NCBI RefSeq assembly: GCF_013315695.1
Contig: NZ_CP054353.1
DNA: 64,000 nucleotides
DNA from: Escherichia coli
GTDB lineage: Bacteria > Pseudomonadota > Gammaproteobacteria > Enterobacterales > Enterobacteriaceae
Reading direction: 5' to 3' (one strand)
The first letter of the stretch is position 1. Each line of letters starts with the position of its first letter. Of the stretch, positions 50,101 to 62,100 are shown one piece after another. The position numbers are program-made.

Positions 50101-53100
50101 GGCAAAATTGTTTTCATCGGTTTGTACATTGGTGAACTTGTTATTGACGATCCGACCTTCCATAAAAAAGAGACAACGTTACTCAGCAGCCGCAATGCCA
50201 CACGGGAAGATTTTGCGTTGGTGATTGAACTGATGCGCAGCAATAAAATTCACGAAAATTTAATGAAAAACCAGGCATTCAATTTCTTTAGTGTTGGCGA
50301 AGATTACCAGCGTAACGTTGTAGAAAATAAAAATATGGTCAAGGGTGTGATCACTTTTTAAGGGAACAAATATGACAACTGTTTATGTCAGTGAAGAAAA
50401 TTTAAAATCACTGGTGCACCACAAATTACATACCGCCGGGCTGGATACCGACACCACACAACAGGTGACAGATGTTTTAGTACATGCCGATATTACAGGT
50501 GTGCATTCACATGGTGTTATGCGTGTCGAACATTATTGCACCCGCCTTGCTGCCGGAGGGTTAAATAAAGCCCCGCAGTTTAGCATTGAGCAAATTTCAC
50601 CGTCAGTGGCCATTCTCGACTCTGACGACGGAATGGGGCATTCCGCATTAATTAGCGCCACTGAGCACGCTATTAAACTGGCCCAGCAAGAGGGCCTCGG
50701 TTTTGTTAGCGTTAAAAACACGTCTCACTGTGGTGCGTTATCTTATTTTGCAGAGATGATCACCAACAAAGGGTTGGTTGCTATCGTAATGACGCAAACC
50801 GATACCTGTGTGGCTCCCCATGGCGGCGCCGAGCGCTTTTTGGGAACTAACCCCATCGCCTTTGGTTTCCCGGTGGAAAACAGCCATCCGATGATTGTTG
50901 ATATGGCGACCAGTGCCACGGCTTTCGGCAAAATACTTCATGCAAAGGAAACCGGAAAACATATTGGTGAAGGGCTGGCGATAGATAAAAACGGTTATGG
51001 CACCACTGATCCGTATAAGATTGAAAACCTGCTACCTTTCGGCCAACACAAAGGTTCAGGCATTGCACTGGCTATTGATGCACTGACTGGCGTGCTGATG
51101 AATGCGAATTTTGGCAACCATATTGTTCGCATGTATGGTGATTATGACAAGATGCGTAAGCTGGCAAGTTTGGTTATTGCCATCGATCCGAAAAAGCTCG
51201 GCAATCCTGTTTTTGCAAAAACCATGGCGCAAATGGTCACGGAGTTGCATGCCGTTAAACCGGCTCCCGGTATCGAAAAAGTGTTAGCGCCGAACGATCC
51301 GCAAATGCACTACAAAGAAAAATGCCAACAGGAAGGTATTCCGGTTCCGGCAGGAATATTCCATTATCTGGCAGAGAATTAATCACTACTTTTTATTATA
51401 ACGATAGAAAAGCGCTGTATTTATCGTTTCTGTTATATTAACCAGGAGCAGGATATGAAAGCACTTCGTCCTCTGACGGCATCGCTTATGCTGTTAACCA
51501 GTTGTTTATTAATATCTAATACCACACTGGCAAAAATAACATTAAAACTGAGTCATAATCAGGATAAAAGCCATGCTGTCCATAAAGCATTAAGCTATTT
51601 AGCGGATAAAACCAAAGAGTATTCTAATGGTGAATTAGTTATTCGCATTTACCCAAATGCAACATTAGGTAATGAGCGTGAATCACTGGAATTAATGAAC
51701 TCCGGTGCATTACAGATGGTTAAGGTTAATGCCGCATCACTAGAATCATTTGCTCCAGATTACAGCCTTTTCAGTCTGCCGTTCTTATTCCGCGACCGTG
51801 ATCACTATTATCGTGTTCTGCAAAGTGATTTAGGTAAAAAAATACTTAATTCATCAGAAAGCAAAGGTTTTGTTGGTATTACGTACTATGACGGCGGTGC
51901 GAGAAGTTTTTATTCCAATAAACCGATTACAAAACCTGAAGATTTAGCGGGAATGAAAATCAGGGTTCAACAAAGCCCCAGCGCCATTGCAATGATGAAA
52001 GCACTCGGTGGTGTCGCTACCCCGATGGCGCAAGGCGAACTCTACACCGCACTTCAGCAAGGTGTGGTTGATGGCGGAGAGAACAATACCGTTGTCTATT
52101 CCGATATGCGTCACGCCGAAGTCGCAAAAGTCTATTCACGTGATGAACACACCATGGTACCTGATGTGTTAATTATCAGCACCGACGTGTTGAATAAACT
52201 TGGTGATAAAGAGCGCACGGCATTATTAAAAGCAGCCGGTGATGCTGCCAACTTACTGATTTAGTGTATGATGGTGTTTTTGAGGTGCTCCAGTGGCTTC
52301 TGTTTCTATCAGCTGTCCCTCCTGTTCAGCTACTGACGGGGTGGTGCGTAACGGCAAAAGCACCGCCGGACATCAGCGCTATCTCTGCTCTCACTGCCGT
52401 AAAACATGGCAACTGCAGTTCACTTACACCGCTTCTCAACCCGGTACGCACCAGAAAATCATTGATATGGCCATGAATGGCGTTGGATGCCGGGCAACAG
52501 CCCGCATTATGGGCGTTGGCCTCAACACGATTTTACGTCACTTAAAAAACTCAGGCCGCAGTCGGTAACCTCGCGCATACAGCCGGGCAGTGACGTCATC
52601 GTCTGCGCGGAAATGGACGAACAGTGGGGCTATGTCGGGGCTAAATCGCGCCAGCGCTGGCTGTTTTACGCGTATGACAGGCTCCGGAAGACGGTTGTTG
52701 CGCACGTATTCGGTGAACGCACTATGGCGACGCTGGGGCGTCTTATGAGCCTGCTGTCACCCTTTGACGTGGTGATATGGATGACGGATGGCTGGCCGCT
52801 GTATGAATCCCGCCTGAAGGGAAAGCTGCACGTAATCAGCAAGCGATATACGCAGCGAATTGAGCGGCATAACCTGAATCTGAGGCAGCACCTGGCACGG
52901 CTGGGACGGAAGTCGCTGTCGTTCTCAAAATCGGTGGAGCTGCATGACAAAGTCATCGGGCATTATCTGAACATAAAACACTATCAATAAGTTGGAGTCA
53001 TTACCGATTATGTCTACAGCAAAGAGTTGTATATCAAGGCACATTGATGTCTTTATCGCCGTCGGAGCACGTCCGGCGGCGCTATTCACGCTGATCTCCT

Positions 53101-59100: not shown

Positions 59101-62100
59101 GCCTGGTTTAGTAAGGCGTCATACTGCGCGTTTTTCCAGTGGCCGACATTTTCCTCGCTATCGCTCTTAAGCGTGTTCAGAAAGGTGGAGGCATCATTGT
59201 ACGTCGCATCCCACGACTGCCGAGACAACATGAAATCACCGGCTCGTCGGGCATCAAGATAAGTTTTCCACTCCATTGTGCGCAGCGTCACCTGTGCACC
59301 CAGCCATTTTTTCCATTCGGAAGACAACGCTATCGCGGTCTTTTCATGCAGATCGTACTTGTTGTAGAACAGCTCAAAGCGAAGCGGATGAGAGGCGTCG
59401 TATCCCGCCTGTTTCAACAAGGCTTTTGCCATCGCGACGCGCTCACTCAGCGGCTTTTGCAGTTCATCGAACGTCGTCGCGCTAAAGCCTTTTACCTCTG
59501 GCGGCGTCAGCGTAGTTGCGGGCGTTCTCAACCCCAGTACCTTTTGCGCAATAAGCTGTCGATCAACCGTAAGATATAGCGCCCGACGCACCCGCACATC
59601 GTTAAATGGCGGTTTCTCAAGGTTGAAGTTGTAATATTCGCTGTTCAGACGCGGAATAATTCGTAGCTCGCCAGGCAGTGATTTTTCAATGGCGGGAATT
59701 TGCTGCGCCGGAACCCAGGTGAGATCGACCTCTCCCGCGCGATAGCGGTTATAGCCGGTGACCGAATTATCCAGCGCCAGATACTCAACCTGTTGCAATA
59801 CTGTATGTTGCGCATCGCGGTACTTTGGATTTTTGCGTGCAGTAATCTTTTCGTTAACTACCCACTGATCAAGCACAAAGGCACCGTTGTAAACCATGTT
59901 CTCTGGCTTACTCCAGCTATCGCCATGTTTAGCGATGACATGATGAGGAACCGGGAACAGCGTCGGCCAGGCGAGCATCGTCGTGAACCAAGGAACTGGC
60001 TGCTCAAGCGTAACTTCAAGAGTACGATCATCCATCGCTTTGACACCCAGCGATGTAACATCTGCTTTACCCGCAACAATAGCCGCGGCATTGTTAATGT
60101 GCGCCTGTGCCAGATAGCCAGCAAAAGGGCTTGCCGTTTTCGGGTCAACCGCACGTTGCCAGCCGAGGACAAAATCCTCTGCTGTCAGAGGCTGACCGTC
60201 TGACCACTGCAAACCGCTACGCAGATGGAAAATATAGCGCTTGCCGCCGTCCAGTATCTCCCAGCGTTCAGCCTGAGCGGGCTGCACCTGGCCTTCACCG
60301 TCCATCCATACCAGACCTTCAAACAGATCCAGCACAATCTGCGCGGCAGTATTCTCCTCTACCTTTTGCGGGTCGAGCGTGCCTGGGTCGCTATGATTGT
60401 TGTAACGAAAAACTTGTTGCGGGGCGAGCGGTGTGTTGGCGGGAACGTCAGCAGCGTAGAGAGGAGCCGCACTTACCAGGCTGACCAGCCATAATAAATT
60501 TCGCGTATACATGGTATTCCTTACCGGAGAAATTATAAGCCCGACAACAATACGCCTGTGGCATTGTTAGCTCAAACTTATCGCGAGTGATTTGGCTCAC
60601 ACTCCGGTAAAGATTCCCCATCACGCTAACGGTACATAAACATCCGTTTCCAGTCGCTGCTCTGTCATCCCTTCGGCAAGATTGGTGTAGTGAAACAGGA
60701 TCGGGGCTTTGCGCATTTTTTCGCCGCTTGCCGGAAGCCAGTGGCGAATGATGCCCCATATCGTGTGTGAAATATCGTCCAGCTCGCCAACATGGCGGGC
60801 CACAGCATAACGTCCACCGGTAAGTTCACCATTACTTACGCCATAACGATTATCGGGGATCGGTTCGCTAACGCTGCCGCAGATATCAAAGCGAAACGCT
60901 TCTGGTGCGGTGGTGGCAGGGTCGTCCCAGGCGACGCCAAAAGTCTGGCTTTGGTTAACAGGAGAAAGCCCCGTCTCTTTACGCCACATGATAAATTTCG
61001 CCACGCTGTAGTTGAGCAACTCAGGGCTACAGCGGTGCGGCAACATCGCCACAGGGATTGAGGGGAAATCGATAATATTTACATCCAGTGTCAGGTTTGT
61101 CATTTTGCCTCCCTGCGAAATTATTCCCGGGAACGCGTCCCGGGAGCGGTAACAATTACGGATTTACTTTGCGGATCTGTTTGACGTCAATTTCAACAGA
61201 GTTCCAGTCTTTATCGACTTCACCCTGAATCTCAACCGTATCTTTCGGCGTCACCGTCACGCCGTTCCAGCGTTTGTGATCGATATCCACATTGATAGTA
61301 CCGCTGGCATCTTTGAACACGTAGAGATCGTCAGAGATGCGTTCAACGATATTGCCGCGCAGGGTTACCCAGGTGTCGTCACGCAGGGATTTTGCGCTTT
61401 CTACGGTCGTTACGCTGCCGTTCGGCCCCTGGAATCCTCCGGCCTGACTTTGCGTTGCCGATGGGCCAGAAAAACCTCCCTGCTCTGCTGCCATAACCGG
61501 TGCACTGCACAGGGCCATTACTGCGATTACTGCTGCGAATTTTTTCATGTTTATTACTCCCTTTAATGTCTGTTTCCGAGCATTTAACAAGATAGTCCTT
61601 AACAACTTCTTAAGGGAAAAAAATAAAATTTAATGCTGTACAGAGCGCGTTACAACACGGTTTACTGGCAGCAAATACGGTTATCGCAGGGATGAAAAAA
61701 TGCGAATTTTACTGATAGAAGATGACATGCTGATTGGCGACGGCATCAAAACGGGCCTTAGTAAAATGGGTTTTAGCGTCGACTGGTTTACACAAGGTCG
61801 TCAGGGAAAAGAGGCGCTATATAGCGCACCTTATGATGCGGTGATCCTGGATTTAACCTTACCGGGCATGGATGGTCGCGATATTTTGCGCGAATGGCGA
61901 GAAAAAGGTCAGCGTGAGCCGGTTTTGATCCTGACCGCGCGCGATGCGCTGGCGGAACGTGTAGAAGGGCTGCGTCTGGGAGCTGACGATTATCTGTGTA
62001 AACCTTTTGCGTTGATAGAAGTCGCCGCCAGGCTGGAAGCTCTGATGCGCCGAACCAACGGCCAGGCCAGCAACGAGCTGCGCCACGGCAACGTCATGCT

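Follow-up and report, generated by a model that had tools for sequence, protein, structure and literature searches.

How does a chromosomal gene come to end inside an insertion sequence, with its native last codons stranded on the other strand, and what does this do to its product? Both questions are raised by ygiS in the 64,000-nucleotide stretch of the Escherichia coli contig NZ_CP054353.1 analysed here (hereafter the window). Comparison with an intact relative, E. coli AF14, and with other public genomes leaves hardly any doubt that the structure arose by IS1-mediated inversion of a chromosomal segment in an E. coli lineage rich in IS1.

The split ygiS gene

The fused ygiS reading frame runs on the minus strand (58911..60512) and encodes 533 amino acids, comprising 525 native residues and an appended GDAANLLI, so that the C-terminus reads HNPQDYV-GDAANLLI. 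The last eight codons (58937..58914) and the stop codon (58913..58911) lie inside the left inverted repeat (IRL) of an IS1 element. The native 3' end is found 5.9 kb away on the plus strand (53015..53047), with YSKELYIKAH at 53015–53044 and TGA at 53045–53047; the nine bases in front of it (53006–53014), directly after a second IS1 copy, again encode DYV. An initial annotation had placed both parts at these coordinates and had given 535 residues as the length of intact YgiS, and both points are borne out. Joining the ygiS body to 53015–53047 gives 1608 nt and 535 amino acids, identical to intact AF14 ygiS at 1608 of 1608 nucleotides.

No usable in-frame start codon lies upstream of the stranded tail, because the insB' stop codon falls five codons before the repeated nine bases. 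RNA folding placed a G+C-rich, 10-bp hairpin just 3' of the native stop (53057..53081, plus strand), perhaps the stem-loop that belongs to the native 3' end of ygiS and has been parted from the gene body. The hairpin has no T-run, and a terminator role is therefore conjectural. A consensus scan for promoters and terminators across 52900–53300 found nothing.

The IRL contains the open frame GGT GAT GCT GCC AAC TTA CTG ATT TAG, which gives a GDAANLLI tail to whichever gene reads into it in frame, as happens twice in the window. The second recipient is a truncated gene for a TRAP DctP-family solute-binding protein (dctP; 51455..52264, plus strand, 269 amino acids), where the initial annotation had already noticed the same tail. 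dctP shares the tail with ygiS because it enters the IRL in the same frame. The remaining two frames stop after six and zero codons, and the shared tail is thus a one-in-three coincidence of frame.

Both chimeras are listed in RefSeq as ordinary proteins, an annotation blind spot that arises because domain models leave the altered C-termini uncovered. In the fused ygiS ORF, the Pfam domain PF00496 (SBP_bac_5) covers residues 75–453 (E = 9e-84). There are 455 public contigs with exactly this 533-residue protein (WP_001571929.1), which is annotated as a normal CDS.

An inverted segment between identical IS1 copies

The two IS1 copies are identical at 768 of 768 positions and lie on opposite strands. 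Copy A (52238..53005, plus strand) has its IRL at the left and contains insA (52293–52568) and insB' (52487–52990), both on the plus strand; copy B (58170..58937, minus strand) has its IRL against the ygiS body. In length, inverted repeats, frameshifted ORFs and an 8–9 bp target-site duplication, both are IS1A-like. Their ends, GGTGATGCTGCCAACTTACTGAT and GGTAATGACTCCAACTTATTGAT, form imperfect inverted repeats of ~23 bp (18/23 matches between IRL and IRR), insA and insB' are listed as ORFs of 91 and 167 amino acids, and the overlap between them carries the motif TTAAAAAACTC, an A-run for programmed −1 frameshifting. The 232-residue IS1 product matches PF03811, PF12759 and PF03400 (Pfam; Zn-ribbon/HTH and DDE_Tnp_IS1), and the PGAP label in identical genomes is 'IS1-like element IS1A family transposase, programmed frameshift'.

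Copies A and B bound a segment of 5164 bp (53006..58169) that holds the ygiS tail, parC (53185–55443), plsC (55677–56414) and ftsP (56489–57901), all on the plus strand, and a remnant of dctM. The native upstream region of parC, 137 bp long, is retained in front of it. In AF14 the gene order is collinear (ygiV-ygiS-parC-plsC-ftsP-dctM-dctQ-dctP), and the window segment 53006–58169 aligns to it at 99.9% in the orientation opposite to both flanks. The sign of the GC skew differs between the inverted block (positive) and the ygiS side (negative), in keeping with an inversion; the skew is also confounded with gene strand, and over so short a segment it carries no weight as evidence.

The 9-mer GATTATGTC, which spans ygiS codons D523-Y524-V525, is single copy in AF14 (12592–12600 of the AF14 locus sequence). 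It occurs twice at the window breakpoints, once inside the inverted segment next to the IRR of copy A (53006..53014, plus strand) and once outside it next to the IRL of copy B (58938..58946, minus strand). The two target duplication copies, one per IS1, are thus mutually inverted, and both window alignments to AF14 overlap by exactly these nine bases. A chance origin of the 9-mer match at fixed positions has p ~ 4e-6, and the reconstructed 1200-nt junction of ygiS body, tail and parC matches two genomes at 100%; together these exclude a chance explanation. Of 5426 complete E. coli genomes, 4053 have the reconstructed junction contiguous, defined as at least 80% of the 1200 nt at a single location. 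The initial annotation mentioned neither the inverted 9-bp duplication, the signature of an IS1 event, nor a deletion of 1842 bp in the TRAP operon.

A deletion in the TRAP operon

The native part of the truncated dctP (51455–52237) comprises 261 of 327 codons and is followed by eight codons and a stop from the IS1 IRL (52238–52264). It matches PF03480 (DctP) over profile positions 2–236 of 286 (Pfam); the intact AF14 homologue has 984 nt. The dctM remnant (57972..58169, minus strand) is the 3' end of the TRAP large permease gene, its last ~65 codons, with a Pfam match to PF06808 (DctM) over profile positions 359–413 of 413, and is marked as a pseudogene by PGAP. It adjoins the IRR of copy B without a target duplication (flanking 9-mers AAAGCAGCC and GTTTTCAAC). 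Relative to AF14, 1842 bp are missing between the dctP and dctM parts and, as the pair carries no target duplication, this DNA was lost beside IS1. The loss is an IS1-adjacent deletion in the TRAP transporter operon, and the transporter itself is certainly lost.

At the deletion junction, BLAST alignments ran 5 and 8 bases into the IS1 ends. Microhomology was considered as a source of this overrun and rejected, as the match is a partial resemblance between CATAATGATGCC and GGTAATGACTCC (8/12). IS1 prefers end-like targets, and we treat the resemblance as chance, or at most as a case of that preference, with no separate mechanism.

Origin of the inversion

In window orientation, the ancestral order was dctP(+) dctQ(+) dctM(+) ftsP(−) plsC(−) parC(−) ygiS(−) ygiV(−). 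The proposed donor is an IS1 resident in the TRAP operon, which now has dctP codon 261 on its IRL side and the last ~65 dctM codons on its IRR side. By intrachromosomal replicative transposition it would have entered ygiS at GATTATGTC (codons 523–525), in the 'trans' orientation. This single step, a duplicative inversion, would create a second identical IS1 in inverted orientation, turn round the 5.16 kb from donor to target (ygiS tail, parC, plsC, ftsP and dctM remnant), and leave the two target 9-mers in opposite orientations, one within that segment and one beyond it. In the present structure, translation of ygiS passes V525 into the IRL and stops after eight codons, with YSKELYIKAH and the 3' hairpin left 5.9 kb away on the opposite strand. 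The locus has the hallmarks of a duplicative inversion, namely identical inverted IS copies bounding inverted DNA and inverted target duplications at the donor IRR and the new-copy IRL (as in PMC4471558). According to PMC4471558, elements of the IS1 family seem to use replicative transposition and to delete DNA next to themselves. We slightly favour this one-step route over insertion followed by IS1–IS1 recombination, and regard it as somewhat probable; both routes yield an identical structure.

The same 10-kb structure is collinear at 99.99–100% in five other closed genomes, and its orientation is kept in two further closed genomes with later rearrangements inside IS1 A or IS1 B. The inverted state is therefore present in 7/7 other closed genomes checked and re-flipped in none, a count of genomes examined individually, outside which lie about 18–20 further closed contigs. 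Junctions at IS ends read identically in either orientation, and junction searches are thus blind to a re-flipped state; seeing one takes contiguous sequence across an IS1, the point at which short-read contigs end. No evolutionary intermediate was found with four junction queries against 5426 RefSeq complete E. coli genomes and two exact-protein contig look-ups, all matches being the complete inverted structure or later derivatives. 'Full coverage' matches in Eco-15 and CUVET20-PYO4 were rejected, being joined from 2–3 pieces at unrelated nearby IS1 copies. Shigella was considered as the source and rejected, as the matching genomes are E. coli. In literature on ygiS, on ygiS with IS1 and on strain MSB1_4I, we found no description of the rearrangement.

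The main alternative to the one-step route has a substantial chance of being correct. A separate IS1 would have entered ygiS by simple transposition, opposite to the TRAP IS1 and with a direct GATTATGTC duplication, and homologous recombination would then have flipped the segment between the two identical 768-bp elements, taking the ygiS tail and one of the duplicates across to the other end. RecA-dependent recombination of inverted copies predicts exactly the observed structure, and a single sequence cannot separate the routes. The chromosome is rich in IS1, with three identical copies in the 64-kb window and at least 40 IS1-matching pieces in each sister genome. The two closed relatives with further large rearrangements have their breakpoints inside IS1 A or IS1 B, showing that IS1–IS1 exchange occurs here and making the two-step route plausible. 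However, it needs two events where one is enough, its un-inverted insertion intermediate was not found among the genomes searched, and easy recombination would give both orientations, whereas the window and all seven closed genomes checked are inverted.

An assembly artefact is exceedingly improbable: short reads alone cannot resolve an inversion bounded by identical 768-bp repeats, and an assembler could have misplaced the segment, but at least seven closed genomes, sequenced independently by separate projects in different countries (UK, Australia, an NCTC strain and others), share the orientation. In two of them one IS1 now adjoins other loci, which pins the orientation down independently, and the ygiS truncation and fused tail hold whichever way the segment lies. 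The rearrangement is real and clone-wide, but of an ordinary, well-understood kind.

Effect on the YgiS protein

A full-length alignment joins YgiS to the OppA structure 1b05 (E = 9e-146; OppA residues 1–517 with query residues 21–535), with each residue of the YgiS tail paired to one of the OppA C-terminus YVKNLYIIKH. The lost decapeptide, with the motif Y-[ST]-K-[DE]-[LM]-Y-I-x-[AK]-H, is among the best conserved stretches of the YgiS/OppA family: Y526, [ST]527, K528, [DE]529, [LM]530, Y531 and I532 are kept in 47–55 of 57 homologues, down to 42% identity. All YgiS orthologues with at least 68% identity end in Y-S-K-E-L-Y-I-x-[AQ]-[HY], in the C-terminal alignment that the initial annotation had proposed, and the differing ends that it had named as a refutation were not seen. 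The fused ORF has G-D-A-A-N-L-L-I in place of this motif and retains 0/7 of the conserved positions 526–532; its product is therefore a C-terminally altered YgiS and not an intact family member. The earlier count of ten replaced residues stands, while the accompanying suggestion that the protein may remain partly functional appears too generous in view of these conserved positions.

Judged from alignment and model, the replaced residues are predicted to be the conserved terminal strand of domain I in the OppA-like fold. AlphaFold2 (AF2) predicts a confident turn and strand at 527–533 of native YgiS (pLDDT 91–96). In the fused protein, confidence falls to 75 at residues 521–530 and, in the N-terminal residues 21–30, from 91 to 77, although AF2 is no stability predictor and such a local drop does not decide function. 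The overall fold is unchanged (mean pLDDT 90.7 fused, 91.6 native).

The fused protein is, on this sequence and model evidence, rather likely to be exported but destabilised or impaired. The loss of all seven conserved residues in the terminal strand tips the balance towards impairment, whereas the part that forms the ligand site is untouched, which leaves room for residual function. Against impairment, the residues before 526 and the Pfam domain (75–453) are intact, and the ORF is otherwise undamaged on the 455 contigs; the clone may be too young for visible decay.

It is unlikely, though worth weighing, that the fusion is fully functional or the change neutral, with a dispensable C-terminal decapeptide. 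The first 525 of 535 residues, with the signal peptide and the complete SBP_bac_5 domain, are unchanged, the global fold in the AF2 prediction is the same, NLLI at the end is hydrophobic and could stand in partly for LYIK in the strand, and hundreds of isolates carry the ORF intact. Yet few positions in the family are better conserved than those replaced, not one of the seven conserved residues survives, local AF2 confidence is lower at both the tail and the N-terminal segment, and the gene continues into IS1 where its native 3' end used to be.

Should the IS1 tail indeed cripple YgiS, bile tolerance in the gut could be raised. YgiS has been reported to promote deoxycholate import, a report that is disputed (PMC6918082), and the ygiS locus has no mqsRA upstream, as in AF14. 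From the import report and the absence of mqsRA, which is said to down-regulate ygiS, it follows that a crippled YgiS could raise tolerance. It is very doubtful that the ygiS lesion was selected in a successful human-associated clone, that an altered stability or partner specificity of the fused protein was selected, or that parC-plsC-ftsP, oriented head-on to replication and lying behind an IS1, are selectably altered in expression. An orphan peptide-type binding protein has probably been lost or weakened. Neither this nor the TRAP loss is surprising in an IS-rich lineage, and no long-standing question is opened. The locus packs an inversion, an IS1-adjacent deletion and a pair of chimeric ORFs into a 9-kb stretch, a clean and fully reconstructible case of IS1 chromosome remodelling. 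It also serves as a stable structural marker for a human-associated E. coli clone that is widespread.

Comparison with known systems

IS1 reportedly makes adjacent deletions and duplicative inversions, in classical work attributed to Reif & Saedler in 1975, Cornelis & Saedler in 1980 and Turlan & Chandler in 1995. The present locus resembles such intramolecular rearrangements in its identical inverted IS copies, in the inverted repeats of target-duplication length inside and outside the flipped segment, in an IS junction without target duplication, and in the DNA missing beside the donor copy; mechanistically there is no difference. PMC4471558 describes rearrangements of the same logic for IS26, Tn4401 and ISKpn14, an element of the IS1 family. 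What sets the present case apart is its chromosomal position, its span of three essential or near-essential genes (parC, plsC and ftsP) and its fixation in a widespread clone.

Inversions that depend on RecA and lie between inverted IS copies are known from Shigella, Yersinia pestis and laboratory E. coli lineages. Our locus shares with these the bounding by identical inverted IS copies, and sister genomes contain further IS1-bounded rearrangements. Inversions of that kind mostly measure tens to hundreds of kb, and many are symmetric about ori/ter, in contrast to the 5.2-kb inversion found here, which turned parC-plsC-ftsP against the ancestral direction.

Tails read through from IS ends are a general annotation phenomenon of truncated host genes, from which the GDAANLLI tails do not differ. 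Compared with intact YgiS, an orphan OppA/MppA-like periplasmic binding protein, the fused protein is identical to that of AF14 over residues 1–525, and its last ten residues are replaced by eight encoded by IS1.

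The split ygiS gene and its chimeric reading frames

Read from its sequence, the window carries a 5164-bp IS1-bounded inversion (53006-58169) that contains the ygiS tail, parC, plsC, ftsP and a remnant of dctM, the gene for the large permease of a TRAP transporter. The two bounding elements, copy A (52238..53005, + strand) and copy B (58170..58937, - strand, with its left inverted repeat, IRL, adjoining ygiS), are identical at 768/768 positions, and a third IS1 copy at 18851..19618 (+) has the same sequence. As the initial annotation had proposed, the ygiS body runs into the IS1-encoded residues GDAANLLI; the fused ORF (58911..60512, -) encodes 533 amino acids and ends in PLHNPQDYVGDAANLLI and a stop. 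The native last codons, TAC AGC AAA GAG TTG TAT ATC AAG GCA CAT TGA (YSKELYIKAH and stop), were indeed found stranded behind the other IS1 on the opposite strand, at 53015-53047 (+). When the reverse complement of 58938-60512 is joined to 53015-53047, a 1608-nt ORF results that encodes 535 amino acids, the intact length claimed earlier, and it is the same, base for base, as ygiS of the intact isolate AF14. Two copies of the 9-mer GATTATGTC flank the elements, one directly 3' of copy A (53006-53014, +), the other immediately ahead of the copy B IRL (58938-58946, -).

The truncated TRAP binding-protein gene, dctP (51455..52264, +), shares the GDAANLLI C-terminus, again as first noted, because the copy A IRL is entered in the same frame as in ygiS. 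In its remaining two frames the IRL reaches a stop after 6 and 0 codons, so the common tail is a one-in-three frame coincidence and nothing more.

Comparison with intact genomes

A 1200-nt junction query, made of 600 nt from the ygiS body and 600 nt spanning the tail, the spacer and parC, was contiguous, with at least 80% of it at a single site, in 4053 of the 5426 genomes, and the annotation there was always ygiS next to parC. Two complete E. coli genomes matched the reconstructed junction at 100%, and the best match was AF14 (NZ_OZ546925.1), taken here as ancestor-like. Its gene order is ygiW, ygiV, ygiS (1608 nt), parC, plsC and ftsP, after which come a TRAP operon in convergent orientation, with genes for the large permease, the small permease and the binding protein, and then three dehydrogenase genes. 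Aligned with AF14, the window falls into three blocks: 64000-58938 matches on the minus strand (100%), 53006-58177 on the plus strand (99.94%) and 52242-46635 again on the minus strand. On the AF14 side, blocks one and two share precisely the 9 bases of GATTATGTC; this 9-mer thus occurs once in the ancestor-like genome and twice in the window, the hallmark of an IS1 target duplication.

An 1842-bp stretch of AF14 that separates the second block from the third is missing from the window; it comprises the 3' end of dctP, the whole of dctQ (small permease) and most of dctM. The inversion is accompanied by this IS1-adjacent deletion in the TRAP operon. The 9-mers at the IS1 ends of the dctP/dctM pair differ (AAAGCAGCC vs GTTTTCAAC). 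The Pfam profile match of the DctP fragment stops at position 236/286, and the dctM remnant (57975-58169, -) covers the last 55 positions of Pfam DctM. At the dctM junction (window 58158-58181; 17744-17767 of the AF14 sequence L001), the ancestral CATAATGATGCC and the tip of the IS1 right inverted repeat (IRR), GGTAATGACTCC, are alike at 8/12 positions, and because of this resemblance BLAST and PGAP carry the remnant 8-12 nt into IS1. The likeness is probably due to chance; possibly it reflects the reported preference of IS1 for end-like targets.

Upstream of the broken transporter, 46800-52237 encodes a GntR regulator, a mannitol-dehydrogenase-family protein, a Zn-ADH and an Ldh_2 oxidoreductase, all intact. 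Having lost its transporter, this pathway is probably orphaned in the clone.

Route of the inversion

The locus has the geometry X(dctP')-IRL[IS1]IRR-T'-(inverted segment)-Y'(dctM remnant)-IRR[IS1]IRL-T-ygiS body. Precisely this arrangement is expected from intramolecular replicative transposition 'in trans', by which a TRAP-resident IS1 would have transposed into target T in ygiS. By the published criterion, such an event shows as two IS copies in opposite orientation, bordered by identical, mutually inverted repeats of target-site-duplication (TSD) length; members of the IS1 family seem to use replicative transposition and to generate adjacent deletions that lack a TSD (PMC4471558).

We slightly favour such a one-step duplicative inversion, at a little better than an even chance. 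The same end product would result if an IS1 had first inserted independently into ygiS by simple transposition and the two inverted copies had later recombined homologously; the sequence alone is compatible with both routes, and two relatives show later exchanges at exactly copies A and B. This second route, a serious contender that we hold somewhat less probable, needs two events where duplicative inversion needs one. In addition, the segment is not flipped back in any genome inspected, which suggests that copies A and B have recombined only rarely over the lifetime of the clone. Under the preferred one-step inversion or its rival, the deletion may have preceded or followed, as both orders are compatible with the sequence.

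Distribution and annotation in the clone

Of the 5426 complete E. coli genomes in RefSeq, only 2 have the junctions: AF3, from a UK blood culture, and MSB1_4I, from an Australian rectal swab. Both have the complete inverted arrangement, and each differs from the window by one base. Window positions 51000-61000 are collinear (99.99-100%) with five closed relatives (our handles L002, L003, L004/L009, L006 and L008/L012), and identical to L004 and L006 over 10 kb. Two more closed genomes keep the inverted orientation and carry further large rearrangements that break exactly inside an IS1. In GCA_900448625.1 (L005/L010) the break lies in copy A, and dctP'-IS1 now adjoins ETT2-type type III secretion genes (SpaO, FliP-like, PrgH-like); in GCA_046047015.1 (L007/L011) it lies in copy B. 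IS1-driven reshuffling is ongoing in this clone. Assembly error was rejected as the source of the rearrangement, since closed relatives share the inverted orientation; the rearrangement thus serves as a fixed marker for a clone that is widespread and IS1-active.

PGAP treats the ygiS chimera as a normal protein, under the name 'ygiS ABC transporter substrate-binding protein' (WP_001571929.1), because the Pfam SBP_bac_5 model covers YgiS residues 75-453 only; its sole pseudogene flag at the locus is on the dctM remnant. The 269-residue fused DctP is likewise annotated as an ordinary complete protein (WP_001571926.1 or WP_510002277.1; RefSeq/PGAP, relatives L002 and L003). Annotated as complete, the two chimeras, whose IS1-derived tails lie at 52238-52264 (DctP) and 58911-58937 (YgiS), have propagated in protein databases: in a larger public collection, the exact 533-residue YgiS occurs in 455 contigs (866 index blocks) and the exact 269-residue DctP in 667 (1171 blocks).

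Predicted consequences for YgiS

The alignment of YgiS with OppA (1b05; E = 9e-146) runs from end to end, and the YgiS tail NPQDYVYSKELYIKAH lies opposite OppA DPLDNIYVKNLYIIKH. Among 57 full-length homologues with identities as low as 42%, the positions that differ in the fusion are strongly conserved: Y526 in 47, S/T527 in 53, K528 in 52 (plus 3 with R), D/E529 in 51, L/M530 in 52, Y531 in 55 and I532 in 50. At 526-532 the fused protein reads G, D, A, A, N, L and L.

AlphaFold2 (AF2) predicts a short turn (527-529) and a strand (531-533) at the native C-terminus, the blocks there having pLDDT of 91 and 96. The global model is the same in the fusion (mean pLDDT 90.7 vs 91.6 in the native protein). 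Locally, pLDDT is 75 at residues 521-530 of the fusion and falls from 91 to 77 at residues 21-30, where a one-residue bridge (residue 29) of the native model is absent. As both local changes appear in the fusion, the C-terminal strand presumably packs against the N-terminal segment 21-30. AF2 is not a stability predictor, and the local drop in confidence is only suggestive of impairment. Our reading is that the fused protein would retain its binding cleft and lack a conserved element at the edge of domain I; impairment is the somewhat likelier outcome, and the fusion may keep residual function. The earlier argument, that replacing 10 native residues might leave YgiS partly functional, is thus weaker than it looks.

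Earlier work described ygiS as promoting deoxycholate import and as down-regulated by the MqsR toxin; the link to mqsRA is disputed by a later study (PMC6918082). Deletion of ygiS leaves negamycin susceptibility unaffected (PMC8097410). In K-12 the toxin-antitoxin pair mqsR-mqsA sits immediately 5' of ygiS (PMC6918082). In the window and AF14, ygiS directly follows ygiV, with no mqsRA in the 108-bp spacer (60513-60620 in the window), which bears on the claimed MqsR control.

Neighbouring genes and IS1 activity

The native 137-bp spacer upstream of parC lies within the inverted segment, so the parC promoter region should be preserved. The direction of parC, plsC and ftsP is now opposite to the ancestral one, which we take to be co-directional with replication (K-12 map). 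ParC (53185-55443) has a wild-type quinolone-resistance-determining motif (S80 and E84 unchanged), and the inversion is thus unlinked to the usual fluoroquinolone-resistance alleles.

Copies A and B are both entered sense-wise via IRL towards insA, from dctP' (52238-52300) and ygiS' (58875-58937). Transcription and translation of dctP' and ygiS' would run through IRL into insA, and external transcription could modulate transposase expression of both copies. Published results on such an effect point in opposite directions: upstream transcription is reported to raise IS1 transposition (PMC12428005), and transcriptional read-through, by the title of Machida et al., 1983 (cited in PMC12428005), represses IS1 cointegration.

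The third IS1 has unlike flanks (18842-18850, AATGCCTTA; 19619-19627, TTAATTATT) and no target-site duplication, so it too was party to a deletion or rearrangement. Its IRL holds the first possible start of a 366-residue ORF (17764-18864, -) with no Pfam match.

The initial observation is confirmed as correct and its structural interpretation supported. Our literature search found no published description of this IS1 event. The instance appears undocumented, though unremarkable: its mechanism is classical IS1 biology.
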